63,918 bases of DNA, filler included, from Reclinomonas americana ATCC 50394 (GCA_048213135.1; 12 parts of 12 records of this genome joined end to end with filler, not necessarily neighbours in it), one strand, 5' to 3'. Positions 57 to 37,548 are shown, numbered from the whole stretch's first letter. Notes: generated from the sequence alone by a model not told the origin. Numbers and translations: made by a program.

Positions 57-3000
57 TCAAAGACGACCACCCTCCTCCTCTTCAAGACGCTGATGGCTCG
101 TGGCGCGGCTTGCACCCACGCGGCTGAGGACAGTGCCACCGCTGCCACTGCTGTTGATGCTGGAGTTGCCGCTTGAGCGGACCTGCACGGAATGAATGTG
201 AGACGATTGCAGAGGGGAGAAGAAAGCGTTGCGCGACGCACCTCGCGGAACTTGGACAGCACAAAGAAGGCAACGACGGCGACAGTGAGAATGCCGGCAA
301 TGACGGCAACCAGCACCGCAGCCTGCAGGTGTGATACGGGAGTGAGTTTCACGGAGAGCAACGGTGGGGTGAGAGATTGGAAATGTGTCGACGAAACCTT
401 GCACGCGCTGTTGCATTGCCAAGCATCGACAGTGCCCGAGGACGACGACATGGGCGCCACTGCAAAGGCAAATCATCGTGAGTTGACGACACCCATTCAT
501 CCTTTGATGCGCAAAACACAAACCCTCAAACATGGCGCTCACTGAGACTGCCTCCGCGGCCTGCGATTGGAACTGCAGGTAGTACAGCGCACCGAGAGCC
601 GGAGCAAAGTATACGGTCTGCAAACACCACAGATATCTATGAGTCACAAGAACGACACAAGCGCGCAAAAACTGTGATGATTCAGTGAGCGCACCTGCTG
701 ACCCGCCGACGGAATCACGGTCGAGGCCACGTAGTGGTCGGCCAGATTCTGGAAGGCGCTGACATGCACAGGGCCGCCGGTGGTGTTACACCGGAGGAAG
801 AGCATGTGACTGTCACAAGAAACAGGCGTAAGCATTCGTAGCACGCTCCCGTCAAGCCAAGAAGCGAGAGGAAAAAAAAACAACGCACGTCTCGGACAAG
901 CGCGGCGAGTTGACCGGGGTCGGGACGCGAATCGGCATACGAGTCATCTGGCCCGGGCTGAGGTCCAGCGCCGGCAAGTGCGCCGTGCCCGCCGGTCCAG
1001 GCAGTGTGACGGCTGCGACAGCATAACTTCACGTGAGTCTTGCGATACCTATTGTCCTTCGTGCGAAACTGCACACAAACCTTGGTTGCACGATGCACCA
1101 ATGTACGCATCCTGCGTCGAGGGGGTCGAATACAAAGTGAGTCACTGCCACAGACTGTCGAGTCTCAGCCCCACGCAACTTGGCAGCGGCACATTCCATT
1201 CACGCATGTGCCATGGTCGGAGCAGTTCAGCGGGCAGGCTGCACAACAGAGGTCAGCATCGAATCACCACATAATCAAAGGCACGCACGTATTGTACGCA
1301 ACTGGCCAGAGGGGCGATGATGGTGAAACCCACCGACTGCGTCGCCGTACCCTCACCGTCGGTGAGCATCAGGCGGTATCCATCACCACCACGCGCCAGC
1401 GCAATGGTCCACTGGAAGGTGCTGACACTGACATCCAGTCCCTGGGCCAGCAGTTGAGGCTGCACACACAACGCAATCGACCATGAGGAGATTGACGGAT
1501 AGGCAATGGCACGTGCGAGTATGACTGACCGACACGGTGCCGTGCAGCAGCATCAGGCGCAAGTGACGACCGATGCTTCCGCTGTACGTCCACGTGACGG
1601 CCACCTTGTCGCCGACAGTGTACGACAGGCTCGTCGATGTGCTGAGAGGGCCGGTGAAAGCCAACGTCGGTTGCACGACTGCGCGCGAGAATCGGGATCA
1701 GCCAGTTGCCCTTATCGGTCACGCGAGACATCACACACACACAAACACGTACATGGCGCAATGGAGAAGGTCGACGAGGTGTCACTGTGCGGAGAGCAAA
1801 GTTAGCAAACACCGCCAGCCACAGTGGCTCTTCTTCCATAAAAAGCGTGTGCAACTTGACAACATGGTCGTCGGTGTCGATCAGGAACAGGTGGTAGCCA
1901 GTGCCGGTGACATTCAGCGGCACTGTCCAGTGCACATGCTGACTGCGGCTGTTGACGCCAGCAGCGGCCAACATGACCTGCAAATGACTGTCAACACCAT
2001 CCAGGACACACACACGACAAAAGAACGAGGGCGATTCGTCAAACCTGGGTGGTGCCGTGGTACAGGTAAATGTTGACCGTGTCATCAGCGGCGGCACCCT
2101 CTGCCGTCCACGTAATGTCGTACTGAATTCCCTCGTAGGCAACAATCTCGGCATTCGGTCCGTCAAACGGTCCCGTCAGCGTGTAGTGCTTCGGGCCGAG
2201 GATCGAGAGCATCGGCGATGTGGCGCTGTGGAACAGCGTAAGCGGAAAGAAAGAGAGAGGGACGAATGAATTAAGTGCGCAACTTGATCGAGTGGTCGGA
2301 CGAATCGGCCACCACAATGTGGTAGTGATCGCCAGCAGTGAGGTCGGCCGGCACCTTCCATTCGTACTCACCGTCAGAGGTGTCGAGTCCGGCGGCCAAT
2401 GTCTTGACCTGCGCACAGCAATTGTGGTGAGTCGAGGCATGAACACATGGGTGCGAATGCGTGAGATGAAAAAACAAAACTGGAGTCGCATGCTCGACCA
2501 GAATCACGTCCACTTCGTCGCCGACCTCGTCGGTGGCCCACCAGTGAATGTGTGCCACCTCGCCAACGTGGTAGTGATCCTCCAGCTGATCCTCGCCACT
2601 CGTGTAGAAACCAATGCGAGGAACTGCATTCATGAAGGCGAAGCGTGAGAGATGATAATCACGGTGGCTCTTTATCTCTTTCTCTCTCTCTCGACTTCCT
2701 CACCTCCCACCACCTTGAACATGGGCGACAACGCGTCGGACACCTGCGCGCCAGTGAAGCGCAGCTGATAATCAGTGCCGGCGTGCAAGTCGTGCGGGAT
2801 CGTCCAGCTGTAGGTGAGCGCCTTCGACGGGACATGCTCGTCGATAATCAACACCTGCACACAATGCCAGAGTCAGCATTACAAACACCCTCGAGGCATA
2901 CCAAGGAGGGTGGCGTACCTGCGTGTTGTTGGCAAGCAGTGTCAGCTGCAGCGGCTCATCCACGGTGCCATTGATGGCCCACTTGAGGTGGACGGTGTCG

Positions 3001-6000
3001 AACACGTGGAACGAGTCGTCCATGCCAGTGAACGGTCCGGTGAAAAACACCACACCCGCTGCATCATCATCCGACAGAGCATGAGGGCAAGAGAACAATT
3101 AACAGCTGTTGATAATAAAAGTGCATCGCACCGTCCTCGGCAAGAATGGTGAATTCGCGCGACCTGCCGCACACCTTCACATCGTCCATGTCGCACACAA
3201 GCATGTAGTAGCCGGAGCCGAGGGTCGCGTCCTCGGGGATCACCATCGAGAACTCGCCAGCAGCAGTGCGCACGTAGCCAATGAGGCCGTCCTGCGGAGA
3301 GTGAAGAAAGTTCAGCGAGAGTGCGAGAGAATGGCCCATGGAAGAGAGAATGAGAGCATCGATACTCACATCTGTGCCGAAGAGAATAGACAAGGCGACA
3401 AACTCGCTAACAGCGCCCATGACCTCCCAGCGCACAGACACGCGGTCACCAATGCGGGCCTTGAAGGAGCCGTTGGAGATGCTGCCAGGTCCGAAAACCG
3501 CAATGGACGACGGCACAGCTGCGCGCACCCACGACAGTGAGGAACACTGGAGAGAGAGAAACAGAGTTAATCGAGGAGCACAACGCACTGGCAGCGGCCA
3601 CGGCAAACGGCGGCGTCGTGTCTTGCACGTCATCGTCGCCATCCAGGGTCACACGAATGTAGTAGTTGGTGCCCGGCAACATGTTCTTGGCCACGAACAC
3701 CGAGAAAGCGCCGGCCTTCATCGGCACCGCACCGAGTGTCTCAAACTGCAACACAGACGTTAAGAGGCCGTTGCGCACAGGCACATGCAACAATAGTCTC
3801 GGAACTCACCAGCGAGGAGCCGTACAGCAGCTCGATCGTAAGCATCTGCGACGCCTCGCACGCGAAGCTGGACTCCCACGTCAGGTGGATGAGGTCGCCC
3901 TGCTTGAACGAGGTGTGCACGCTAATCGGTCCCGTCAAGTGCACAAACGGTTCCACTGCGGGTAACGATGAATGATGTGTGGCCAGGGCCGCGAGAGACA
4001 GTGTGGCACGCACCAACAGGATCGGTGACCAAGAACTCGTTGCTCGAAGTGCGCGTCGACTGCGTCACCAGCATGATGGAGTAGACGCCCGAGTCGAGGG
4101 TCGGCACCTTCCAGTCCATGTGGCCGGCGGCAATCGAACCCAGCATGAAGCCGAGCTGACACAGAAGTGAGTGCACAGAGAACAAAAACACATTCGCCAC
4201 GCTTGAGTGAAACAAACACACACCGGTTCGCCGTCCTGGACAAATACCAGCACAAATGCTGTGCCAACGTCGCCAAGCGCCGTCCACTTGATGCGCACCG
4301 TGTCGCCGACGTGCACCACGGCTGGAATCGGGTCCAAGATGACTGCAGCGCGGTCTGTGGAAGGGCGAAGGAGGATGAGACAGGGAGGGAAAGGGGGGAG
4401 AGAAAGGGGAAGGGAGAGCAAGGGGGAAGGGAGATGAAGGGAGAGGGAAAGGGAGGGGGAAGGAAAAGAGAAGTGAAGGGACAGGGAGGGGGAGGAGAGG
4501 TGAAGAGAAAGGGAGAGGAGAGAGAGGGAGGGAAAAAGTAAGGAGGGAATGTGAAAGTGTGTGCACGAAGGAGAGACACACTGAAAGAGAGAGAGGAGGG
4601 GGGAGAGAAAGAAGGGAATGTGAGAAAGTGTGTGAAGAAGCAAGTGAAGTGAACAGACAAGAGAAGACAAGGAGAACGAGGGAGTGAGAGTGTGTACGAC
4701 TGCGCATGCCGGCATCAATGTAAACTTGCGGGCAGCGGCACTCACCAATCACTTGAATGACGCCAACTTGGTGCAGGGTGCCGGTCTCGCCGAGCCTGCA
4801 AATCACAATAATGTGAGCCTACAAACAGCTCCCCCACACTCAGCATCCAGTGATTCGAACGAAACTTGACGCAGACCCAGGCACGGCCACCCTTGGTGCC
4901 CGGCGACATGGTAGCCTCCAGAGTGTCGTCGTCGACCACCTTGACAACGCCGAACTTGCCGAGCTCCGACCCGAGATCATCGTGGCAGCTGCTACCGCTG
5001 TCGGCAAGGTGCACTTCGTCGCCACTCGAGAAACCGTAGCCAGTGAACTGCACAGTAGTGGTCGTGGACGCCAGCACCGTCGACGGGCTGAAGTCAGTGG
5101 CGCCTGCGCAGATGCAAGAGGCAAGTTAGAAACAAAAAATGACAACCAAGCGTATTCTTGGACACGCACCGAGGACGAAGAAGTCATCAGCAATGACCCA
5201 CGACTTGGTGGTGTTGAACCTATCACGCGAAAAGAGAATGAGTGGAGAACTCGGTTGTCTTCCGTGACAGTGAGATTACGCACAAGACGCAGACGTGGAA
5301 CTCGCCCACGACCTCAAACGACAGCTGCACATTCAGCAACGCGTCCTTGGTCTCGACAATCTTGGCGTCGACACCTTCGGCGTTGTGGCAACCGCACGCC
5401 TGATGGTGCTCCACCACTGCGATGTCGATAACGTCTTCCAGGCTGCGCGAAATAATCAGAAGCTGGATTACTGCACTCGTGCGAGTATGTGTGTGTGTGT
5501 GAACGCAACCCAGCGCCATTAACGTCGACACTGAACGTGGAGACAGGGCTCGAGTCGAGCTCCACACGCAGAGGCGACACGCCCAGCACACCTGGCGAAT
5601 GAGTCGCGGTTAGCAGAGTGAATGACGTGAGGAACATGGAAGACGAAATGAACTCACCAGCCACCAGAATGCGCGCATAGGACACTGGAGCAGGCACGGT
5701 GGCATCTTGCATCCTGCAAGAGCACACACACATAGACACATTGTGCGTCAGCTTCAACCACACCAACTACAACGGTCCTTGACTCACAGAATGCAGAGCT
5801 GCACAGCACCGGCACCGTCGGCGGCGACTGTGGCCACCAGGCGCGTGCTGCTGACCACGCTGACAGACTGGATGGAGAACCATTCGGGAGCCGGATCCTT
5901 GCTGCAGTCGCCGTCACCCAGCACCGCCGACAGTTTGTCCGTGTCGCGGAATCCGACGCCGGAAATCGTCAGCATCGTCGGAGTCTTCGGCGGCACCATC

Positions 6001-9000
6001 TTAGGGTTGCACGTGGTGGTGCCTGAGCGAGGAATAAGAGCAGTGTGAGATGCGATAAGTAAGTGAAGGTGAGCACACAGCGGCAGATACGCACCCCACA
6101 CGGAAACTGGTCCGCCTGAAACCTTGACAAACTCGTACTCGCCTTCGGCCGTGTCGACGCTGCAGTGCGGTAGACGAATGAGGAGAGAAGGGAGGGAGGA
6201 GATCAGACAAAGAGGAGGGAGGAAGACAGAGGGAGGAAGAAGGAGAAAAGGAGGGAAGGAGAAAGCAGGAGAAGGATATTGCAAGAAAGATAGAGAACGG
6301 CGAAAACAAGAGAGAAGGGGAGACAGAAAGTAAAAGGAGAGAGAGTAAGATAATGCAAGAGAGAGAGAGAGAGATACAGAGACTTTCATCCATGCAAGAG
6401 ACGACGCACCCAAAGCACAGCGCAAACTCGTAGGCCTCCAACAAGCGGAACTCGATCTCGAGATGACCGGCAGCAATGTCGTTGACCTTGTCGAAAATGA
6501 CGTAGGTCAACTGGCCCTCCTTGTTCTTGTGGTGCTCGCACGAATCCTTGGTGGAGATCGCCAGCACCTCGTACTTGTCCTTTGCACTCGCCGAGTAGTG
6601 CACCGGCAGCTTGTAGATGGTGTTGGAGAAGGGCGTGGGGGCAAATGTGAGCGAGGCGTCTGTGACGTGAGAGTCGTGAGAGTCACGGCGAAGGAGGATT
6701 TTGCATCCAAAAAAAGGAACGCAACCGCCGAGCGTAAAGAGGTCAGTGGAGCTGGCATACTTGGTCGGCGCGGCCTTGTCGCGCAGAATAAAGAAGAACT
6801 CCGAGCCCACGTCGCCAGCCACAAAGTGTTGCGAGACATCGAGGGTGTACTCGCGAGCACTCGTCGGGATGGTGGCCAACAGCTTGGCCTGTGAAAGGGA
6901 GATGAGAGAAGGAAAGGAGGAGAAGGAAAGGATACGAGGCAAAGAAGAGATGGGAGAGAGACAAGGAGATGAGGAGGAATATAATACGAGGGAAAGATAA
7001 AAAAAGACGAGAAGGAGAAGAGAAGAGAGAAGGAACGGAGAAGAGAGAAGGAAAAGGGAAGGACAAGCAGATACGAGAAGGAAAAAGGGACGAGAGGGAA
7101 GCAACAAGAAGAAACAAGTGGTAAACCGAGGTCTACCAAATGAGACTCAACACGCACATCACCCTTTCTCTCATCCCTTCCCCATCTTCAAACGCAACAG
7201 TCGACATGTCGGCTCCAGCCGCACACGACAGCAACTCCAACGTGTCGGACACCTTGCTCGACGACACCCACTCCAGCTCGGTTTCGGCATTCAAGAACAC
7301 GGTGTGATAGTCCTCGCCAGGCACCGGTGCCAGCAGCGCAATGTTCTCGTTGATGATCATGAAGCGCGTGGAGACGTCCCACACCACCGGCTGCATGTCG
7401 AGCACGACGCGGATGGCATGCACGCCGGGGATCGGCGTCTCCGGCGCGACAAAGTCCACATGCAAATCCGTGGTCTCCATGGTCGGCAAGCCAACCGGCT
7501 TCAGCGTCACCGCATCCACCACGTCAACCAGCCACTTGAACTTGAGGCCCGGCGGAATGTTTAGCGTCGTCGTCCACGAAATGGTGTAGGTGGTGCCGGG
7601 AATGAGCACCGACGACACCGAGTCGGCGTCGATCGTGACCACACCTGCACGAAGCGCATGAGCGAAATGAGACACGACATTGTGGAGAAAAACTGGGGTT
7701 TGCTTCCTCACCAACAGCTTGCAGCTGCGGTGCCGTGATCACCAACGCCCACTTATCGTAGTCGGCAGGTGCGTTGCCCCGCTCCACAGTAATGTCGAAC
7801 TCCTCACCACCAGCCTTGGCCGCGAGCTCCACCATTTCCACGTTGTTGACCGAGTCGCGAGTCTGTGTGACAAGTGACATCAATCAACCATCATACATGC
7901 ATCAAGGCGTGCGAGACGAGTGACGCAACATTGCCATTCGCTTCGTGGTTACCAAACACCACGGAACCGTCGGCACGGCTCACCGACAGATCGAGATCGT
8001 AGGTCAGCGCCTTGGCGGCGGCGGGGTTGCCGGGGGCGTCGTACCACGCCAGCGTCACCTTGAACGCACCGCCGTACGCCTTTACGCGGACGTTGAAGGG
8101 CTCACCGTCGGCGCCCACTGCGCCAAACGGCATCTTGTTGATCGCAGCTAGGTTGAAGTTCGACTCGTCGCTGTCAAAAGGAGATGAAGGTGAGGAGTCA
8201 TACTGAGAGGAAGATGGTGAGCGATGTACGAACCGGAAGAAGAGAATGTTGCTCAGGTTAATTAGACCGAATCCCTGCTCCATGCTCGGGTAGGTGGTCA
8301 GCGGGCTGCCCTTGTCTGCACAGCGAAAGAGGGAGGGAGAGAAGGAGCAGAGTGAACATCGTGAGCGATCAAAGAGCGACAATGCAGACGAGAAAAGAGA
8401 AAGAGGATAAACACGAACCACCAATCTTGCCGCTCATGCGAGTGCCAGCGTGCACCATCATGGCCTTCATCAGTGGACCATTGATGTTGGAGGTCAACCC
8501 CTGCGCGAGAGAGAGACAAAGGAAACAATAAGTGGAATGGCGTGCACGAAGAGAGGAAGCTGCATATTGCACGCAACAGGAATCTTGCGGCCGGCTGGGT
8601 AGTATCCGTCGGTAAAGTACTGGCGGACGAGGGTGGCGGCACCGGCGGCAACCGGAGTGGCCATCGAGGTTCCTTGCATGGCTGTGACGCGCAAAGCGTG
8701 AGGTGACCGATAAAAGAGAGGTACTTCACGGAAGTCACGCACCGTGGACACCACAGTTGTTCGTGGTGACGTCGCCGTCTGAGTAGGCGCTGAGGACGTA
8801 CATGCCGGGGGAGACAATGTCGGGCTTGATGCTGTGCGAGGAGGAGGGTGAGCGACAAATGAAAGAGATGGAAAGAATGATACTCTCTCCAACTCACCGC
8901 CCGTCACCAGTCGGTCCGAGGCTGGAGAAGTAGGCCAGATCCTCGATCGAGGAGCCGGCGGGCAATGGCAGAACGCGAATGGTGCCGGAGAAGAGCTCCA

Positions 9001-10481
9001 GTCGGTGTGGGGGGTTAACCGACAGCAGTTCGCTGAGAGGCGAAATGAGAAGAGGGAAAAGAGGGGAAGAGAAGGAAGCCAAGGTAAGGGAGAGAGGAGG
9101 AAGGAAGGGGAGAGGAGGCGGGAAGGGGAGAGGAGGAAGGAGGGGGAGAGGAGAGGGAAGGACGAAGGAGAAGCAGTGACGGCAAAGGAGGAGGAGCAGC
9201 GCAAGCAGTGACGGCAAAGGAGGAGGAGTAGCGCAAGCAGCGACGGCAAAGGAGGAGGAGCAGCGCAAGCAGCGACGGCAAAGGAGGAGGAGCAGCGCAA
9301 GCAGCGACGGCAAAGGAGGAGGAGCAGCGCAAGCAGCGACGGCAAAAAGTGGAGGAGCAGCGCAAGCAGCGACGGCAAAGGAGGAGGAGCAGCGCAAACA
9401 GCGACAACAAAGGACGAGAGGCAGCGGCAAGAAGCGACGGCAAGGGAGGAGCAGCAGCGCAAGCAGCGACGGCAAAGGAGGAGCAGCGGCGCAAGCAGCG
9501 ACGGCAAAGGAGGAGCAGCGGCGCAAGCAGCGACGGCAAAGGAGGAGGAGCACCGCAAGCAGCGACAACAAAAGGAACGCACCGAATGCGAGCCGCCGAC
9601 GAGAGACCGATGCTCAGACCCGGGATGGTGACCGCTCCCATGTCGTCGCCAATCATGCCAATCGTCGTATCATCGTAATTGATGATCAGCACGGCCTGCA
9701 TCGAGAAATGCAATGATGAGAGAGGTGGGGTGGAATATAATGCCGCGCTGAGTGCTGCACGAACCACCGCGCCAGCAAGCTGTGCATTCTTGAACTTGTC
9801 CACGAAGGGGCAGTTTCCGCGCTTGATCATGGCGATCTTGCCGGCAATGGCCGCACCGTTCACAATCGGCATGCAACCTGTGGTGCGACATCAATAGTGG
9901 TGAGAGGCGAGAAAGACATCCAAGACGGACAAACCATCGACGGGATCCGAGTCAGCAATGCCCACTTGATCGAGGAACGGCTTCGTCATCAGGTTGCCAC
10001 CGAACTGCGCAGCGCCAGCAGGAATCGAGAGGAATGCGTTGCGCGAGGCACCGACACCTGTAATGGCGGCGTTAGGCGGTTACCCTCTCGCACACACACA
10101 TTTCCAACACAAGTCGGGGACGCAACCGATCACGTTCTTGGAGGTGGCCGGGCCGCCGACACTGTGAGCACCCCTGGCTCCCGCGTTGCCGTTGGCGACC
10201 AGGAAGGTGGCGTCCGAGTTCTCGTACAGCCAGCTGTCAATGTCGCGCTCAAACGTGCTGTACGAGTTGTCTTCGTCGCCCCACGATGCCGAGAAGATGC
10301 GTGCGCCGTCGTCGTAGCTGCGCTGCAACAAATCGTTGCCCACATCCTCCGGAATCGACAAACCCTGTGCGCGAATGCGTGAGAAGAGGTGTAGTGGAAG
10401 ACGGACATTATGATGCAATTACTACACAACTCCACGATCATCGCCGACGTCCTCGAAGCTGACCTTGGCCTTGTAGGCCAC
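57..10481 (-). CDS. Giant multi-exon S8 subtilisin-like serine protease (KP-43/TagC type) with inserted PA domain, long beta-sandwich-repeat stalk, one C-terminal TM helix and short cytosolic tail; 5' end lost in the gap
   Basis: Spliced exons give ARIFSASWG, FLVANGNAG, GPATSKNVIGVGA, PA motif GKIAMIKRGNCPFVDKFKNAQLAGA, FSSLGPTGDGR-IKPDIVSPG, catalytic Ser motif MQGTSMATPVAAG, QGFGLINL and VTLAWYDAPG..YDLDLSV..NNVE. Many repeats of the type GD.V.I.W..YSWTIP.DL..G..Y.. follow. TM exon AAVLVAVIAGILTVAVVAFFVL at about 245-323; stop TGA at 57-59. That the whole span is one gene is inferred. Confidence 0.85.
9172..9572. repeat. Intronic minisatellite, about 32-bp unit (CGACGGCAAAGGAGGAGGAGCAGCGCAAGCAG), about 12 copies
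   Basis: Head-to-tail copies with no unique spacers, inside a subtilase intron. Confidence 0.9.
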
Positions 10482-10581
10482 NNNNNNNNNNNNNNNNNNN
10501 NNNNNNNNNNNNNNNNNNNNNNNNNTTAATTAATTAANNNNNNNNNNNNNNNNNNNNNNNNNNNNNNNNNNNNNNNNNNNN
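10482..10581. other. Artificial contig spacer (44N-TTAATTAATTAA-44N), first of 11
   Basis: Identical 100-bp blocks at 10482-10581, 15183-15282, 17533-17632, 27844-27943, 30335-30434, 37449-37548, 40865-40964, 44072-44171, 53474-53573, 60543-60642 and 62339-62438. The 12-mer puts stops in all six frames. Confidence 0.98.
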
Positions 10582-22674: not shown

Positions 22675-25600
22675 TTATACACCAAGTGCGCCAGCAAAGT
22701 CAGGCAACACAGTGCCGATGATGCGCTCCACCAATCCCCGAGAGCGTCGGCGCATCACATGTACGGAACTGCCAGACACGCGGGCAGTGTATGCAGCACC
22801 GAAAGCCATGCCCACAAGAGCTACAACACGGCCTGCTGCAGGATCCACGAGGTCCGCCAGTTCGTCGAGAGGCACTACTTCTTCGCCACTCACCAGCCCC
22901 CAAACACGCACTGCGCCATGCAAACTCCCACTGACAACATAACGGCCATCTAAAGTGATGGCGACAGATCGCACCTTGTCGGTGTGCCCCTCCAGGCATC
23001 GCAGTTCCACACCACCGGCCAGAGACCAAACACGCACTGTGCCATCGGCTCCTCCACTCACAACGTGCTGACAGTCGGGAGTGACGGCAATGGACCGAAC
23101 TTCGTCAGTGTGTCCCTCCAACCGGTGCACCTCCTCGCCACTCGCCAGTGACCACACTCTCACCGTATTATCCCGGCTTCCGCTCACAACATGCCGACCA
23201 TCAGAAGTGACACAAACAGAGTAGACCCAGCCGCTGTGCCCTCCCAATCGCCACACTTGTTCCCCACTCGCCAGCGACCACACACGCACAGTGTTGTCGT
23301 GACTGCCACTCACCACGTGCTGGCTGTCGGAAGTCACAGCGACAGACACAACGCCATCATCGTGCCCAACGAACCGTCGCACCTCGTCGCCAGTTGCCAA
23401 CGACCACACCCGCACAGTCTTGTCCTCACTTGCACTCACAACGTACTCGCCGTCCGGAGAGATGGCAACAGAAAACACCCAGTGACTGTGTCCCTTCAAC
23501 AATTGCACTTTCTGCCCTTCTTTTTCAGCGCACATGCTCATCAAGTGCACCGCCCCGCTCTGACTCCCACTAACGATGGACAGACCATCCAGAGAAAGTG
23601 AGAAAGCCGAGACCCTCCTGGACTGTCCTTCTATCCTCCACACTTCCTCGCCGTTCGACAGCGACCACCACCGCACTGTGTCGTCCGTACCTGCACTCAC
23701 CAAGTGCTGCCCGTCGAGAGTGAGCACAGCAGAATGCACTGAACCAGTGTGTCCTCCCAACCGTCGCACTTGTTCCTCGCCCACAACAGGCCAATGTCGC
23801 ACCGTCGTGTCAGTGCTCCCACTGACGATAAGCTGACCGTCACACGAGACAGTCACACAACGCACTGCAGCCGTGTGCCCACCCAACCGTTGTACTTCTT
23901 CACCGCTCGTCAGCGTCCACAACCGCACTGTCTGATCCTCACTCCCACTAACAATGTGCTGACCGTCTGGAGTTGCAGCAACAGAATTCACCCTGCCAGT
24001 GTGCCCCTCTAACTGTCGTACCTCTGCTCCACTCGCCGTTGACCATACTCGCACTGTCTTGTCCCAGCCTCCACTCACGATGTGTTGTCCATCCGGAGTG
24101 ATAGAGACCGACAGCACCCCTAAGCTGTGTCCCTCCATGCGTCGCACCTCTTCTCCACTTGCAATGGACCACACTCGCACAGTCCTGTCCCAGCTTCCAC
24201 TCACAGCATGCAGGCCATCGGGGGCGATGGCAACAGAAGTCACCCAATCGGTGTGTCCACGAAGTTGTCGCACCTCCTCACCGCTCGACAGTAACCACAC
24301 TCGTATGCTGCTGTCCTCGCTCCCGCTCAGCACGTGCTGGTCATCGCGCGTGACGGCGACAGACGATACTGCCTCAGTGTGTCCCTCCAATCGTCTCACT
24401 TCTTGACCAGTCGACAGTGACCACACTCGCACGGTCTTGTCGCGACTCCCACTGATGATGTGCTGACCATTGGGTGTGACGGCGACAGAGTTCACTGTCC
24501 AAGTGTGGCCTTCCAGTCGGCGCACCTCCTCCCCACTAGCCAGTGAGCACACTCGCACAGTCATGTCCTCACTTCCGCTCACAATGAACTGTAAATCGGG
24601 GGTGACAACAACAGAAGTCACCCACCCAGTGTGCCCCACCAACGGTTTCCTTGGCCACTGTACACCCATCACATCAGCCCCTCTAAAATCCGCCTCCCTC
24701 GCAAATGCGGAGCACACATTCACCCCTCGCAAATCCGCTCCCCTCCACACCGTCCTGTGCATCACTGCATCCCTCAAGTCCGCTCCTCTCACTCGCACAC
24801 CCGTCATGTCTCGCCCACTAAACGACACTTGTGCCACACACAACACCGTTGCCGCGTTCGCGGCTGCGGTCACCACTCGCTCCTCATCCACCTCTCGCGA
24901 CATTTCAATCACCTCCCACAGTCTTGCTTGTAATCGAGGAGACCGTCGCACCACTTCGGCCATCTGCTCCACCAACGATGGTCGATCATTCAGCAGTCGC
25001 ACCGCGAGCACATGTTGCTGCACATCCTGCACCACCAATCTCCTCTCCTCATCCCACGTCTCCCAAGCAAACACATGCCGTGCCACACAGTGCTCCAGCA
25101 ACGACAGATGTACGAATCCCCACTGTGCCGTTCCATACCGTCGCACAATCGGACAGCACACTCGCACATCCTGGTACTTCTGTCCGAGGAATTTGTCAAA
25201 TGGCCCTTCTTCCACTCGCTGACGATCGAGTGGCGCACCACCAAACTCAGCAATGTCCTCTTCCAATACTCGCTCTTCTGACACCGCACGCACCACATTC
25301 CTCTCATGCATCAACCGTGCCAGTCCTTCACAGAACGCCACACACGTCGCCTCACTCGGCACACGCTCCGCACCAAGACGCGTCTGTCTCTCCTGCTCCC
25401 TCTCAATCCACTGTCGAATGAACCGGTCAAACACATCACACCGAGTCGGTCGCTGCACACCACTCGCCACCAATTGTGGCAACACACGAGCAACCACTGC
25501 CAGCATGAACGGGTTCGACACCAGTGCATCCAGTCCATGTACATTCTTCAGTGCACGAATGTACTCCTCGGCAGTCGACCATCGCAGTTCATCATCGTCA

Positions 25601-27457
25601 CCACCTACTTGCACCAGCCGCTCAAAGTATTCCTCAATCTGCCCCGTGTTGAACGGAGCAATGTGTCGCTCCATCAGCTGCTGCATGCACAACTGTCCGC
25701 GTGTATCCACTGGTGCAAAGTACCGTCGATACTGCGCCATTCCACCCAGCGCCGTCAGTGCGTAATCGCCTCGACAAGTTATGATCACCTTCACATCGCG
25801 ACACACGTCCAGCTGGTTCTTGACAAACAGATTCACACCACGATACAACTCGTCGTACCCGTCAAGCAGCAACAGAAGCGGTTCCTCTTTCAACCGACGC
25901 ACATCCGACTCGCTGAATCCCAACTCGGGTGACAGTCGCTCAAGTGCTTCCTCCAACAACCGCTCATCAGCATTGCGCAGTGCGCCAAGAGGCACACGCA
26001 CAGGCACTCGTCTGCTTTCTCTCCTCTGCCACTGTCGCCATGCTCGCTCGGCCAGCACCGACATGGTGGTGGTCTTGCCGGCTCCACTGTTGCCGAAGAG
26101 CACCAGCACACGCTGCGTGGCGTTGGGGTCGGAGAGGAAAGCATCCACCTCCGTCAACAGATCCGTCATCTTGTCACTCGAGGAGACATCACGCTCACGT
26201 GAACACAGCAGTGGCACATACACCTGCATGTCCTTGCGCACACTCTCGTTTTCGTGACAGTAGGCCATCTCACGCAATGCCAGTCGATGCAGTCGCTCCT
26301 CGAATGTGTCCACAATGTGTCGAGCATGACGCGCCTCGCAGATACGTGCAGTGAAACGAGAGAATTCGTCAACTGTCAACCAAAGGCGAGAGAGGATGGA
26401 GACGAAGACGCCACCATTTCCAAGGCACTTCTGCACAATGTCATCCGTCGGCACAAGGTCCTTGTGAGCCAATCCGTTCCTCACATTACGCAGATCCTCC
26501 ACAGCCTTGCGCTCAGTGACATCATGAATAAGTAATAGCCTGCTTCCATCGTGCTCGACGAAGCCACCGCACACCAAAATAGTCGATAGTGTCGTCGTGT
26601 CGAATTCGTCACAGGGAGGGTCTGACGAGAGGTCGGCGTCGAAGGCAGCGCGCCAGGCCAACACCACCGCATGCTTCTCCTTGAACAACTTGACTCGAGT
26701 GGGGTGGAGTGGAGCATGTCGATCACGCCACGCTTTCACTGCCGTCGCATCCATGCCAGCAGGCGTGAAACTCGGAACCCAAGCCCGCACATCAAAGTCG
26801 GGATGATCGCGACTGAACTGGGCCAGTGCACGTTGACAGCGCTGGCGGACGGCCTCCTCCAGCACCTCAAAGGCCATGTTGATGCGTTGCGAGTTGATCA
26901 TGCTGTGCGTTCACAAAACAACACAGTCAGCACGGACACACACAGACTGGAAGAACAAGGAAGAGGAGAGAGGAAGATGACGACGAGAAGCAAAACAAAC
27001 CGAGTCACTCGCTCCGAGTTACTGCGCAAAGACGTGATAGTGAGTTGCATACTTTGCACAGAGAATGATTCGCAACACACTACTCACATGGAACTCTCAC
27101 TCCCACTCCCTCCACTCAATGGCAGTGTCTTGCCAAGTGTCAGACGGACAACAAGGTGAGTGGATGAGTTGATGCCAATGTCTTCCAGCTCCAACACATC
27201 AGCCTTTGCCACCTTGTATGGCGCCGGCTTCTCCACTCCCACAATCTCCATCACCCCATCTCCACTCTTCTCACGCAGCAAGCGAGTGGCCTCGCACAGC
27301 AACTCGGAGAGAGTGCATGTCGCCGACATGCCCTCCACCACCACTGCCAGTGACGAGTCATGCGCCGCACTCACATGCACAGAGAACTGTGTAGACACAC
27401 ACAAGTGAGTGACAAGAGAAGGGAAGGATGAGGGAGTGAGCGCGCACACACCGACAT
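22675..27457 (-). CDS. NLR-like STAND protein: ubiquitin-like / HEPN / NACHT NTPase / pentapeptide repeats / 14 WD40 (about 1510 aa)
   Basis: Exons 27457-27452, 27386-27088 and 26902-22675 join in phase. Motifs: LEDIGINSSTHLVVRL (Ubl); FDTTTLSTIL..VEDLRNVRNGLAH (HEPN Rx4H); Walker A GNSGAGKT; Walker B LLLLDGYDEL; VIITCR; NPFML; FVHLSLLEH; AAANAATVL + GADLR pentapeptides; then 14 WD40 repeats. Confidence 0.9.
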
Positions 27458-27595
27458 GATCTGACAACGCAGCAACACAGGACAAGTGCCTGAGAACGAA
27501 GCACAGACGCACTGTTGGTGCAGAGGTGTGTGTGTGTGTATGTGTGTGTGTGTGTGTGTGAAGTTGTCCTCTGTTCGATATCTTGTATTGCTTGC

Positions 27596-30500
27596 ATGTC
27601 TGCAGCTGCGCAGAGTGTGGTGGAACGCGCGTTGCAACGAGTGTTGGAGACCAGTAACAACAATGGAAACAACAGCCAGTCAGCGCGTGCTGAGTCAGCG
27701 AATGTGGAGGCTGCGGTTGTCAGTACGCCTTTGACAAGGTGAGTGTGTGTGTGTGTGTGCAAGAGAGAGAGAGAGGAGGGAGAGAGAGAGAGGAGGGAGA
27801 GAGAGAGAGAGAGAGGAAGGAGGAGGAGAAGAGAAGAAGAGAGNNNNNNNNNNNNNNNNNNNNNNNNNNNNNNNNNNNNNNNNNNNNTTAATTAATTAAN
27901 NNNNNNNNNNNNNNNNNNNNNNNNNNNNNNNNNNNNNNNNNNNTCTATCTCTCCCTCCTTCCTCAATCCTCTCGCCTCCTTCGTCACTCACCTCCCTCCT
28001 CTACTTTCTGACCTCTCTCTCTCTCACTCTCTTGTCTTCCTCTGTGCCTCCTTCCTCATACTTCCTGCCTCTCCTTCTTACCTCTCTTTTGCCTTCCTTT
28101 GCTCTCTTCTGTCTCCTTCTCCTCCTTCCTTTGCCTTTTTCTCCCCTCCTCAATCCTTCTCGCCCCCTTACTCCAGCATCATTCTCCGTCGCTTCCACAC
28201 CCGCTCTTCCACACCCTCCACCCCCGCCACCCCCGTCACCTCCGGCCTCCACATCGAGCTGAGGCCTCCTCCTCCTCCCCCGTCGCCCTCGCAAGCCACT
28301 CTTCCGCTCTCTCCTGCGCTTCTCGAGGCCACGCAGCGATTGTGCCGACGGCACCTGCGATCACTGTTTGATGCTGATCAGCAGCTGCCGGAGTGGGTGC
28401 TGGAGTTTGAGTTCTGTGGATTGGTGCGCAGCGTGCAGTGGGAGCGCTTGTGTGCGGTGGTTGAGTTGCGTAGGACGGGGAAAGGGAGGGGAGGGAGAGA
28501 GGGAGGAGGAGAGACAGGAAGGGAGGGAGAGTGTTGTGCCCAACACCACCGCTCGCTCCTTTGTCTTGTTTCTTTGTTCTTCTCACGTGCATCTCTGGTG
28601 TCCTTTCGTCTCCAGTCTTCGTGAAACAAGGGAGAGTGGCTGTGGGGTGAAAGAGAAGAATCAGAGTTGGAGATCCCTCGAGAAAAGACAGGATGCAAGT
28701 CCGTGGGTGCTGTGCTAGAGGGAAGGAAGGGAGTGAGAGAGTGTTGCGCCTTCTCCTTTATTTTCTGTTGTCATTCTTCGTCTCCAGTCTTTGAAAGAGC
28801 AAGAGTCGAACGAGAGTCTCGAAAAAGACGACATGTGGCTCCATTTGCTGTGCTTGATGAGTAAGTGAGTGCCTTCTTGTTTTTCCCTTCTCGTGCATCT
28901 CTGGTGTCCATTCGTCTCCCTCACCCTCTCCCCATTCATTTTCCTCTCCCCTCTCTCCCTCGCTTTCTAACTTGTTGCTCACTCACAGTCACTCGTTTCA
29001 ATCTGGTGTTTCCTGTCTCGTGTTTCTGACTCTCGTCTATTGCTCTTCCCCGTTCTCTCTCCCTTCCCCTTCCCCCCACAGTGCCATCGGCTCCAGCGAA
29101 TCCACCGCCACCCTCTCCACCATCGACGCCTATGTAGCCGAGTATCCCGACTGCCACCTCGGTCACTTGAGTCGCGCCGCGCACTTTTGCGGAGCACCGC
29201 GTCACGAGTTGCGATGATGCGCGCTGCCACAGCAGCGCATGATGCTCATTCCTCGCTTATGTTTCTCAGTCACGTGCGAGCGGCGGACTCTGTAAAGAGG
29301 GCACTGGAGCTGACCGAAGAAGGCAGTCCATTGGTGCTGTACCACGCAGGGTTGTTTCTGCTGCAGGTATCTTGGTTGAGGAAGCTTGATGATGATCTTT
29401 TTTCTCACCGTTTACGGACAGTGCAATCTTGCGGGTCACGCGCAGACATTCTTCGAGCATGCGCTTCATGTTGCTGACGAAGTGCGAATTCAGTTGCGTC
29501 GCAAGACGATTTTACTCGCCGTCGTGTTTCCACTGAACACCATGCAGTGAGCCCCATTATGCCGCGCAGTTTGCGGAGTTGTCGCAACTCGGACACGTCA
29601 TTGCTGTCTTTGGCAGCGGGCGCTTGGGGCAGGCGGCGATAGTCAGTGATGCAGGTGCTTTTTGTGGTGGTTTCTTGCGCACTGCCGAGAGCTGAAAGTG
29701 CTGTGCAGCGTGGAAGCGCGTTGTGTTCAGTCGCGATCCGTCGTCACAACACCTATGCTCCTGCATGCTCGACGTGCGACAAGCAGCTCGTCGTCTACTG
29801 TGGACCGACGATTCCGGGACGCTGTTTGATGGGTGGCGCCTGGCGCTCAGCGAGTGTCAAGTGCTCGGTGGTGGGTTGAATGACTGTTTCTGTGCGCGGC
29901 AAGCGACTGACGACTCGTGCAGCTCGCTTTCTCCGCTGGCCTCCGCTGATGCACCTGTTCGACCGACTGGCCACACTCACCGCTTTCCGATGCACGCTCG
30001 CTGCCGTGTGTTCGGCTGCTGCAGCGGTTCGTTGGGGGAGGGGGGGGGGGTTCTCCCTTGATGTGAATGCACACTTCTAGTTGGCTGTTCACGTCTGGCT
30101 TTCCGTCTGGTCTCCAGTTCCCTTCAGCTTCACAGTGTTCTTATGTCTCGCTTCTGTCTGCTTTCTCTTTCCCCTCTTACCCCCTCTTTCCTTATTTCCC
30201 CCTCGTTCCCCTTTCTTCCCCCTCCATCCTCCACGCTTCTCCCTCCTTTTCCCCTCTTTCCCCCTCTTTCCCCCTCTTTCCCCTTCTTCCCCCTCTTCCC
30301 CCTCTTCCCCCTCTTCCCCCTTCTTCCCCCTCCTNNNNNNNNNNNNNNNNNNNNNNNNNNNNNNNNNNNNNNNNNNNNTTAATTAATTAANNNNNNNNNN
30401 NNNNNNNNNNNNNNNNNNNNNNNNNNNNNNNNNNTCTTTCCCCCTCTTTCCCCCTCTTTCCCCCTCTCACCCTTTCTCCCCCCTGCAGCTTCTCTTCCAC

Positions 30501-35175: not shown

Positions 35176-35953
35176 TGTTGTTTTTTTACACAAAGAGAGA
35201 ATGAGAAGAGAAAGAAAGGTGCTCTCTGGAGAGTGATAAGATGCGTGTTAATTGGGCTTGTTCTTGCCTTTTTCGTCGACTAGCTTCGTGCCAAGTGGGC
35301 ACACTGAGAGGTTCTGTATTGAGTGCTGCTCGTGGTGGAGGAGAAGGAGAGGCTGCTTGAGGAACAAAAAGAAGCAGCAGCCGTGTCGCAAGTGGTTCGA
35401 AGCTTCGAAGTTCGGTTTCATGCTTGCAGTTGCTTCGAATTCACTGCTGTGCGTGCTGGCCACAAGCCTCCAGTGTGAGACTTCCGTGCTGTCGCTAGCC
35501 AACAGGTGGGTAGCGTGCATCTCGAGCTCTCGAAAGACATTGCTGCAGTCGACCGCGACGTCGACGTTCACTTCGAATTCCTCCGGATCCGGATCCGCAG
35601 CCCTCCGAGCTTTGCTGCAAAGCCCCATCGACTTGGAGGTCATCGTGGTATGCACGTACACTGCTGCTATGTGTGCACTGCGGTCAAAGTCAAGGTGGCA
35701 CACGTCCCACATGAACGTCGACGTCGACAGAGGAATCAAGTGAGAGCAGAAGAATCCACACGCACACGCACACACACACGCGCACACACATACGCACACA
35801 CACGCAACGACGACGATAATAGAAGCAGGAGGAAAAGGAGAGACACACACACACATTCCTTCCCTCCTCTCTCTCTCTCTCTCTCTCGATGGACATGGAT
35901 TTTCTCTTCCTGCTGGCGGCATCATATTCAGAATTCGCTGCGGCGATGGCGAC

Positions 35954-37448
35954 ATGGGAGGCTGGAGGGACGATGTCGCAGTGGAACTCTTTGCCGAGTG
36001 CGAGCGCAACTTCACTAAGCTTCTCGGCGCGCACAATGAGAAGTGGACGGTGTCGTCGGCAGTCAATCACATCTCATGTCTGATGTTGTCTGCCGATCAC
36101 GTGCGTGCTCTTCCGCGCCTTGAGCAGTTGACGACGCAATACCGCCGTGTTTATGGCGATGAGCACCGAGTGACAATGTTTGCGAAGTGCGCAGTGGGCC
36201 GCACATTGTTTAGAGGGGGTCGACGCACGGAGGCTTTTGCTCTGATGCGTGGCACGGTGGAGAAAGTGCTGCGCTTACTGCCCGAGGACGACCAAATGGC
36301 GTTATCGTCCATTAGACTCTTCTCGGAAGTGCTGCATGCTGCACGTTTGTTCGAGGAGGCTGTTGACATCGATCGTGCCGTGCTGCGGAGAGACAAGTTC
36401 ATGGATGACGACCAAAAATGCAAAGCCTGTCACAGCCTTGCAATTGCTCTCGTGGGAGTCGGCGGTGCGGCGAACTTGAATGAGGCTCTGGTAGTTTACG
36501 AGCGCGCTCTCAACGGATTGAGCAGTCTGTATGGTGACGACCATCCTGGCAAGATGGCAATGACGTGCGAGCTCGCTGGCGCACTGTGCAAGCTTGAGCG
36601 GTACGGCGAAGCTGTTGATCTGTTGCGCGAGACATTGCAACGTCAAAAACGTGTATTGTCGGAAGGTCACGTGCAGACGCTGAATACGATGCGCAATCTC
36701 GCCGAAACTCTGTTGCTCACAGCCGACTCGGGCGATGCTGTTGCAATTGGACGCGAGGAGTTGGAACTGGAACGCAAGTTGCACGGTGACGAAGACGGTA
36801 GGACAGTTGCAAGCGCCTTTAGCCTTGGCGGGTACCTTCTCACCGTCGGTGGCGACAGCAATGTGGCGGAGGCTGTTTCTGTACTTAAGGATGCACTTGC
36901 GCGGCAGAATCGGCTCGCTGGTTCGGACAGCGAGGCGGCTCTTACAATAGCAAGATTTCTTGGTGCCGCCCTCGTCCAGGCTGGTCGACCTGAAGATGCT
37001 ATTGAATTGCTGTCCGAGACTTTGGAACGGCTGAAGCGATCGCGCGAGCCGAATAGCGACCTCATGTTGCAGATCTTGGACGACCTCGCGGATGCGTATG
37101 GAGCCTGTCAGAACTACGAAGAGGCTGTTCGAATCGGACAAGAGCTTCGAATCCATCAACAGCAGAAGCTTGGCGATGATGACCTGGAATTGTTGCGCTG
37201 CAATCACAGACTTTCATCCCATGTCTTTCAACTTGGTGGTGTGGAGAACTTTGCGGAGGCGGAGCGCCTGCAAGAGGATGTCGTGTGCCGGCGCGAACGG
37301 CTGCTTGGTCTGGACTATAGTGCGAAGGAAATCGAGACGCAAGAGCTGCGGTATATCCGTGCTGTTCTTGAAGATGCTCGGCGCAGGGAGAGAGCGCAGT
37401 CACGCCCGACGCAGAACCGCATGATAAGGAGACGGAGAAGAAGAAGAA
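35954..37448 (+). CDS. Intronless TPR region (42-aa kinesin-light-chain/TPR_12-type repeats, about 11); probable N-terminal part of kinase-RING copy 1
   Basis: Repeats such as YGDDHPGKMAMTCELAGALCKLERYGEAVDLLRETLQRQKRVL. The frame is open up to the gap with no stop. An alternative start at 35889 lies in another frame. Confidence 0.85.
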
Positions 37449-37548
37449 NNNNNNNNNNNNNNNNNNNNNNNNNNNNNNNNNNNNNNNNNNNNTTAATTAA
37501 TTAANNNNNNNNNNNNNNNNNNNNNNNNNNNNNNNNNNNNNNNNNNNN

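Follow-up and report, generated by a model that had tools for sequence, protein, structure and literature searches.

The question raised by the gene on the minus strand at positions 22675–27457 of a 63,918-nt stretch of DNA from Reclinomonas americana ATCC 50394 (GCA_048213135.1; the whole stretch is called the window below) is whether it encodes a receptor resembling the nucleotide-binding leucine-rich-repeat proteins (NLRs) with an RNase of the HEPN type as its N-terminal head. The initial annotation had described one spliced open reading frame (ORF) with a ubiquitin-like domain, a HEPN domain, a NACHT domain, a pentapeptide block and 14 WD40 repeats, and had not recognised this architecture. 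The tripartite NLR-like layout, consisting of an N-terminal head, NACHT and a repeat sensor, is solid. Our preferred reading, to which we give a probability of about one half, is that of an NLR-like protein of the STAND class (signal transduction ATPases bearing numerous domains), in which a variable, probably HEPN RNase head is followed by NACHT, a pentapeptide spacer and a 14-blade WD40 sensor, and in which the output would be the cutting of RNA. The parts of the gene and of its product (P0001) are as follows.

27452..27457, minus strand: hypothetical first coding exon, ATG TCG (by eye, with GT at 27451 and an in-frame join; speculative)
27387..27451, minus strand: hypothetical 65-nt intron with a pyrimidine-rich CAG acceptor (from its sequence context only)
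27088..27386, minus strand: upstream exon of about 99 codons, candidate ubiquitin-like domain (open frame)
26903..27087, minus strand: 185-nt GT-AG intron, donor GTGAGT, acceptor CAG (in-frame join)
22675..26902, minus strand: main exon, stop codon at 22675–22677 included (from the ORF and motif positions)
26224..26877, minus strand: orphan N-terminal domain, P0001 residues 12–229, candidate HEPN-like effector (no homologue and no PDB sequence match)
26434..26517, minus strand: 28-residue stretch TERKAVEDLRNVRNGLAHKDLVPTDDIV with Rx4H (matches the Swt1-like HEPN catalytic helix)
25765..26112, minus strand: core of the NACHT nucleoside triphosphatase (NTPase), residues 267–382 (Pfam PF05729, 35.9 bits against a cut-off of 26.7)
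24868..25764, minus strand: NACHT-associated region, residues 383–681 (alignable with the relatives P0003–P0005 and the bacterial L001)
24643..24867, minus strand: AAANAATVL motif and pentapeptide-repeat block, residues 682–756 (Pfam PF00805, 25.4 bits against 20.2)
22870..24642, minus strand: 14 WD40 repeats, residues 757–1347 (L-x-G-H anchoring, Pfam WD40 and Tandem Repeats Finder)
22678..22869, minus strand: 64-residue C-terminal tail (nothing meaningful in Pfam)

The NACHT, pentapeptide and WD40 modules were found just as the initial annotation had placed them. Besides the profile match above the cut-off, both nucleotide-binding motifs of NACHT are intact, Walker A (GNSGAGKTT at 26094–26068, with Lys279) agreeing with GxxxxGK[ST] and Walker B (LLLLLDGYDE at 25878–25849) displaying the D[GA]xDE signature that is a hallmark of NACHT domains; the columns of both motifs are invariant in the alignment of the core relatives (alignment A1). 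The AAANAATVL motif lies at 24867–24841 and is followed by a Pfam Pentapeptide match at residues 695–729 in two stretches, whereas the NCBIfam model MfpA matched the same block with an E-value of 1.8e-7, a match that stays below the cut-off of that model. The motif and the block are conserved both in A1 and in L001. L-x-G-H anchoring revealed exactly 14 WD40 repeats, 42 residues long in thirteen cases and 45 in the other, in agreement with the Pfam WD40 match (E-value 4.7e-137, 13 matched stretches) and with a 126-nt period detected by Tandem Repeats Finder. Fourteen repeats suffice for two seven-bladed propellers, and a double-propeller fold is probably formed.

The head contains DTTTL (26601–26587) and, exactly as had been stated, an Rx4H motif in R144-N-G-L-A-H149 (26481–26464). 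According to the available part of PMC3710099, the signature to be expected is Rx4–6H with a polar residue (Asn, Asp or His) after the arginine, and Arg144, Asn145 and His149 conform to it. By itself, the short motif does not exceed chance expectation, since the six-frame translation of the window, 96,560 residues in all, contains 13 instances of RNx3H and 399 of Rx4H; only the extended match over 28 residues does. The sole Pfam family retrieved with the head was HEPN_Swt1 (PF18731), with an E-value of 0.0033 for the 231-residue head and 0.03 for the 749-residue N-terminal part. A local Swt1-like hidden Markov model (HMM) was prepared from 27 PF18731 places found in 26 of 401 sampled bacterial genomes (one phylum); after the identical duplicate L021 had been dropped, 26 aligned domains remained. 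With this model, residues 121–148 (TERKAVEDLRNVRNGLAHKDLVPTDDIV) were aligned around the catalytic R-N-x-x-A-H at 16.0 bits, a score reached by none of 2000 composition shuffles (maximum 9.5). In a six-frame control, the window yielded 1012 segments with a length of 40 residues or more; no segment outside this ORF exceeded 4.5 bits, against 16.8 bits for the ORF. The match to the consensus ER..V..LR.VRN..AH.....TDD includes the flanking ER, LR and TDD residues in addition to the catalytic triplet, and a profile comparison by hhalign gave an E-value of 3.9e-4 at a local probability of 36%. Furthermore, Swt1-like HEPN clusters were at the top of an ESM Atlas feature search (score 0.84), which serves as a lead only.

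Several observations weigh against a HEPN RNase at the head of a non-self sensor. The HEPN_Swt1 match, at 18.1 bits, is below the gathering cut-off of 27.5 and covers only positions 74–101 of the profile (28 of 115), and the local hhalign probability of 36% is accompanied by a global one of 4%. When the head was added to the bacterial alignment, it agreed with 8 of the 13 well-conserved columns, and its Asp104 was aligned with an aspartate conserved in 23 of the 26 Swt1-like sequences; such matches arise by chance, however, since shuffled flanks matched at least four of the eight non-motif columns (Trp, Asp, Phe) in 100 of 200 trials. The agreement was therefore rejected as evidence of domain-wide similarity to HEPN, and similarity beyond the catalytic helix is not demonstrated. 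No homologue of the head was found at E ≤ 0.001 by phmmer among 1.84 billion representative proteins, the search of PDB sequences yielded nothing meaningful, and neither PADLOC, PHROGs nor NCBIfam gave a HEPN or defence match for the head, the only PADLOC anti-phage model involved being mad8, which matched the NTPase region weakly (E-value 9.8e-5, 20 bits). The single-sequence AlphaFold2 model of the head is unusable, with a mean predicted local distance difference test score (pLDDT) of 36; Foldseek found no PDB match to it at E ≤ 0.001, and it contains a β-hairpin at residues 102–119 that is unexpected in a minimal HEPN domain, for which an up-down bundle of four helices, with the motif closing helix 3, would be anticipated. 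Outside the head, the mean identity of the WD40 repeats (57%) is lower than the at least 85% that is the hallmark of the fungal receptors in the available part of PMC4986451, so that nothing points to ongoing concerted evolution, and none of the RNA runs searched for the locus was found to contain it.

The prediction of a HEPN homodimer scored 0.00 with an uncertain fold of the partner, and thus provides no evidence in either direction. The initial annotation had expected a profile of the DZIP3 or Swt1 type to recognise the head. HEPN_Swt1 was indeed found, although below its threshold, whereas HEPN_DZIP3 (PF18738) gave no Pfam match at E-values up to 10, a negative that extends to matches passing the speed filters of HMMER, which may conceal very weak ones. 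The support for the HEPN assignment is therefore real but narrow: the match of the catalytic helix exceeds what shuffling produces, and the flanks do not. The head is probably a divergent HEPN domain and, with somewhat lower probability, a catalytically active RNase.

The relatives of the rest of the protein offer another view of the head. A search with residues 1–700 (8000 scored candidates, E ≤ 0.001) yielded four proteins, namely a 1610-residue JGI metagenome protein (P0003, 34% identity), two EukProt proteins (P0004 and P0005, 28%) and a Mortierella fragment. P0003–P0005 can be aligned from VYVP just before the NTPase, through Walker A and B, AAxNAxTxL and the pentapeptide repeats, into the WD40 region, whereas their N-termini are unrelated to the head (alignment A1); P0003 has a protein kinase there, and P0004 and P0005 have a long N-terminal region with no assigned domain. 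Neither these core relatives nor the bacterial L001 scored with the Swt1 HMM. Among 18 loci obtained by scanning prokaryotic genomes, the best was L001, from a gammaproteobacterial metagenome-assembled genome (MAG), which is 25% identical over residues 220–751 and encodes at 1651–6270 (plus strand) a 1539-residue NACHT-Pentapeptide-WD40 protein with an N-terminus of about 80 residues. The last approximately 290 residues of L001 have no Pfam match and may represent an uncharacterised effector. With other heads or none on the core relatives, the head looks swappable, and the occurrence of the NACHT-pentapeptide-WD40 core in a bacterial MAG as well as in eukaryotes indicates a shared module on which heads are exchanged. 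Such an exchange on a constant core is a pattern described for conflict systems, as far as the available part of PMC7159879 goes.

The repeats vary in a restricted manner. For 13 of the 14 repeats (the 45-residue one was left out), the pairwise identity ranged from 43 to 71% around the mean of 57% for the protein and averaged 64% for the DNA. Maxima of entropy were observed at repeat positions 2, 6, 7, 9, 25 and 27, which we take to flank the GH and the turn S-x-D-x-T in the top-face loops of the WD40 structure. Head swapping together with variability at few repeat positions is typical of conflict systems (PMC7159879 and PMC4986451, available parts). Seven WD40 repeats of the same type, 53–55% identical to those of the gene, are encoded by a further ORF at 19336–20601 (P0127; minus strand), which lies 2 kb downstream of the gene, shares its contig and strand, and has no NACHT in front of it. 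This ORF may represent a gene fragment, an additional exon or a propeller that stands alone; in the last case, the paralogous propeller could act as a partner or a decoy. No second head, NACHT or ubiquitin-like domain was detected in the window by tblastn.

As for the gene model, the ORF on the minus strand at 22675–26910 comprises 1411 codons from stop to stop. The donor, GTGAGT, begins at 27087, and the AG of a CAG acceptor rich in pyrimidines is at 26904–26903, so that the exons 27386–27088 and 26902–22675 are joined in frame into 1508 codons with a terminal stop only; the predicted splice 27087/26903 is canonical. The single spliced ORF of the initial annotation is thus borne out with regard to its open frames and is compatible with the predicted intron, whereas its start at 27457 is possible at the price of a hypothetical 6-nt coding exon and a hypothetical 65-nt intron, both read by eye. 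Alternative starts are available at an in-frame ATG near 27330 inside the upstream exon and at 26901 (M4) and 26877 (M12) of the main exon. Low-depth DNA contigs (runs X1 and X2, from one sample) cover small parts only and reproduce 26462–26920. At position 26625 they have G (depth 5.5 and 2) where the window has A, which would result in S96P in the head; the difference may be an allele or an error. The G+C content at third codon positions (GC3) of the gene is 0.60, that of other coding pieces of the window 0.56–0.81.

The upstream exon had been read as a ubiquitin-like domain. The exon gave no match in Pfam (E-values up to 10), PHROGs or NCBIfam; no homologue was detected at E ≤ 0.01 in a search of 554 candidates that was restricted to longer proteins, and its model gave no ubiquitin match with Foldseek. 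Among the named clusters of the Atlas, ubiquitin/Rad60-SLD appeared at 0.88, again as a lead only, and the AlphaFold2 model, albeit poor (pLDDT 43), has the order strand-strand-helix-strand-strand seen in the β-grasp fold. The cluster lead and the order of elements speak for the assignment, and the missing profile and homologue matches speak against it; we treat the ubiquitin-like domain as a lead whose chances are about even.

The window is itself composite. Its 22 runs of N correspond to 11 linkers, each consisting of N44, TTAATTAATTAA and N44, by which 12 contigs are concatenated:

10482–10581, 15183–15282, 17533–17632, 27844–27943, 30335–30434, 37449–37548: linkers, first six
40865–40964, 44072–44171, 53474–53573, 60543–60642, 62339–62438: linkers, last five

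Gene order and adjacency across linkers are therefore untrustworthy, and the true context of the NACHT-WD40 gene is limited to its own contig, 17633–27843, at whose end additional 5' exons could be missing. On another contig, at 48833–52198 (plus strand), there is a bacterial-type 2-methylcitrate-synthase-like gene with at least five exons and GT..AG introns, its best matches being 51–67% identical (bacteria, EukProt transcriptomes and dictyostelids). This gene indicates that the DNA comes from an intron-rich eukaryote, and a protist host is plausible.

These results leave room for other interpretations, two of which concern what the protein does. The head may not be a HEPN RNase at all; it could be a lineage-specific helical adaptor or another effector, with RN..AH having arisen by convergence or chance, in which case an NLR-like STAND protein would remain, with a different output, such as the recruitment of a partner. 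A match that is sub-threshold and confined to 28 residues, flanks at chance level, a global hhalign probability of 4%, the lack of support from any fold (a model with pLDDT 36 and no Foldseek hit) and the unrelated heads of the other core-family members are all compatible with this. We regard it as unlikely nevertheless, because the score was reached neither by the 2000 shuffles nor by the other frames of the 64-kb window, because Pfam, the local profile and the language-model features lead to the same family (the last two were not chosen blind), and because ER, LR and TDD are matched besides the catalytic triplet. A regulatory or scaffolding STAND ATPase that takes no part in recognising non-self, similar to TEP1-like or non-immune NACHT-WD40 proteins, and that binds an endogenous partner through its propellers, is distinctly improbable: the repeat identity of 57%, i.e. 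the absence of highly conserved repeats, and a PADLOC result limited to a weak NTPase hit speak for it, while heads swapped on a constant core, variability focused on few repeat positions and a paralogous propeller on the same contig speak against it.

The other two interpretations concern the gene. Its model may be partly wrong, in that the exon of the presumed ubiquitin-like domain does not belong to the gene and translation starts at M4 or M12, additional 5' exons lie beyond the end of the contig, or the downstream ORF with seven WD40 repeats is a further exon. This is somewhat doubtful, given the canonical donor and acceptor, the in-frame join to a long open upstream exon, the Atlas leads and the secondary-structure order compatible with a β-grasp, and the non-repeat tail that precedes the stop of the main ORF; on the other hand, no RNA run containing the locus was found, the contig stops at 27843, the upstream exon is devoid of Pfam matches and homologues, in-frame ATGs are present at 26901 and 26877, and the seven-repeat ORF shares strand and contig with the gene. 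Finally, a bacterial defence gene may have been acquired horizontally in recent times, which would explain an uninterrupted exon of 4.2 kb in an intron-rich genome in which the 2-methylcitrate-synthase-like gene has at least five exons; the gammaproteobacterial MAG with the same core and the bacterial origin of the best matches to the helix of the head fit this as well. We consider such an acquisition very improbable, for the GC3 of the gene is within the range of the window, its 5' end contains at least one predicted spliceosomal intron, and the bacterial core is 25% identical as compared with 28–34% for the eukaryotic and metagenomic relatives. An NLR-like STAND protein with a probable HEPN RNase head remains our preferred reading.

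Proteins of this kind are already known, so that the novelty claimed for the architecture was overstated. As far as the available parts of the sources go, bivalves and cnidarians have many HEPN-NACHT proteins with leucine-rich, TPR or WD40 repeats (PMC9646362, PMC8260672): the pearl oyster has more than 50 HEPN-NACHT proteins, Rx4–6H being kept in 194 of 202 DZIP3-like HEPN domains, usually with Asn after Arg (PMC9646362), and anthozoans have 17–83 per species (PMC8260672). Amphioxus and cnidarians have HEPN-NACHT proteins of the CXorf38 type, bacteria have HEPN-STAND proteins, and an Asn following the Arg is a usual feature of active HEPN domains (PMC3710099); a survey of bacterial NACHT proteins likewise names HEPN as one of the domains that accompany NACHT (10.1101/2022.07.19.500537). 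For the animal proteins, a coupling of sensing with the cleavage of RNA has been suggested (PMC9646362, PMC8260672, PMC3710099). The present protein shares with them an N-terminal head, here a candidate HEPN, with Rx4H and Asn after Arg, NACHT, and C-terminal repeats; it differs in the pentapeptide block between NACHT and WD40 and in a head that has no homologue in the searched databases. Furthermore, the animal heads are of the DZIP3/hRUL138-like or CXorf38 type, whereas here there is no DZIP3 match and only a sub-threshold Swt1-like one.

Other known systems resemble parts of the protein. The bacterial Swt1-like HEPN-DUF499 proteins provide the best match to the catalytic helix and likewise have HEPN N-terminal to a large NTPase (in L020, HEPN at residues 26–134 and DUF499 from residue 310), yet DUF499 is an ATPase other than NACHT, WD40 repeats are absent, and only 28 residues are alignable. 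With the fungal HET-E/HNWD proteins, the gene product shares NACHT and 42-residue WD40 repeats varying at few positions; the fungal repeats are at least 85% identical, compared with 57% here, and the available part of PMC4986451 describes no pentapeptide block. Pfam reported no HET domain at the N-terminus of our protein, which thus falls outside the HNWD/HET-E definition. In RNase L and Ire1, a HEPN-type RNase is activated by ligand-induced dimerisation or oligomerisation. These two enzymes, which have ankyrin or luminal sensors with a kinase-like module in place of NACHT-WD40, offer a mechanistic analogy only; the catalytic roles of the arginine, of the residue after it and of the histidine are described in PMC3710099. 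Full-text searches of the literature yielded no protist protein described as Swt1-like HEPN-NACHT-pentapeptide-WD40, which is no proof of absence, as supplementary tables of PMC3710099 or of the bacterial NACHT preprint may list such proteins. What is distinctive here is the combination of an orphan head with a Swt1-like helix, a core clade that contains pentapeptide repeats, a possible ubiquitin-like domain and an apparently non-animal host.

A relationship to the RNase-armed immune receptors of animals and bacteria is plausible but unproven, and a mode of action can be proposed by analogy for every step of activation. The binding of a ligand by the WD40 propellers would release autoinhibition, upon which nucleotide-dependent oligomerisation of NACHT would bring the heads together. 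Paired HEPN heads would then form composite sites of arginine and histidine for metal-independent cleavage of RNA, and this cleavage would lead to a stop of translation or to cell death. Activation would be akin to the induced dimerisation of the KEN RNase in RNase L and Ire1, and the upstream exon may contribute a ubiquitin-like domain. On a bolder and tentative view, rather unlikely as it stands, a non-animal eukaryote would have assembled its own RNase-armed NLR by placing a ubiquitin-like domain and an Ava_2192/Swt1-like HEPN before the shared core, independently of animals and convergently with them. The Ava_2192-type HEPN is active and has been transferred to some protists as solo domains, according to Table 1 of PMC3710099, a source available in part.

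The window contains further features, which were surveyed with Pfam in part (19 ORFs and 78 of 136 selected ORFs). Protein-kinase exons are present on the plus strand at 38344–38739, 42655–43065 and 45935–46366, two of the three passing Pfam Pkinase and 38344–38739 showing a glycine-loop-like sequence by eye, with a coiled-coil ORF nearby at 37549–38314; among the core relatives, it is P0003 that bears a kinase head. A long ORF at 35744–37448 (plus strand), which stops at a contig linker, has TPR_12/TPR_10 repeats (E-value 1e-33) of a type common in NLR-like proteins, and no NTPase was seen upstream of it. Exons of a Peptidase_S8 (subtilase) are found on the minus strand at 8494–9669 and 10083–10418. 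Microsatellites of the (CA)n and (CT)n types lie just upstream of the NACHT-WD40 gene at 27540–27600 and 27740–27843 (minus strand), and repeats of these types are frequent across the window, where they are a source of spurious ORFs. Scans of the window with Rfam and for tRNA genes were empty.

Should the head turn out to be of another kind, the protein would be one more orphan-headed NLR-like protein. The NACHT-pentapeptide-WD40 core, being present in a bacterial MAG and in eukaryotes, defines a clade that can serve as a useful marker when such exchanges are traced. Given an active HEPN RNase in the head, the protein would couple a death effector of the RNase class to a NACHT switch in a lineage other than animals and bacteria, and the HEPN domain would be of a type that, at least in Table 1 of PMC3710099 as available, has been reported from protists solely in the form of solo domains. 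The protein would then be a compact, testable case of RNase activation by induced proximity and a data point on how often eukaryotes have rebuilt NLR-type immunity from bacterial parts.

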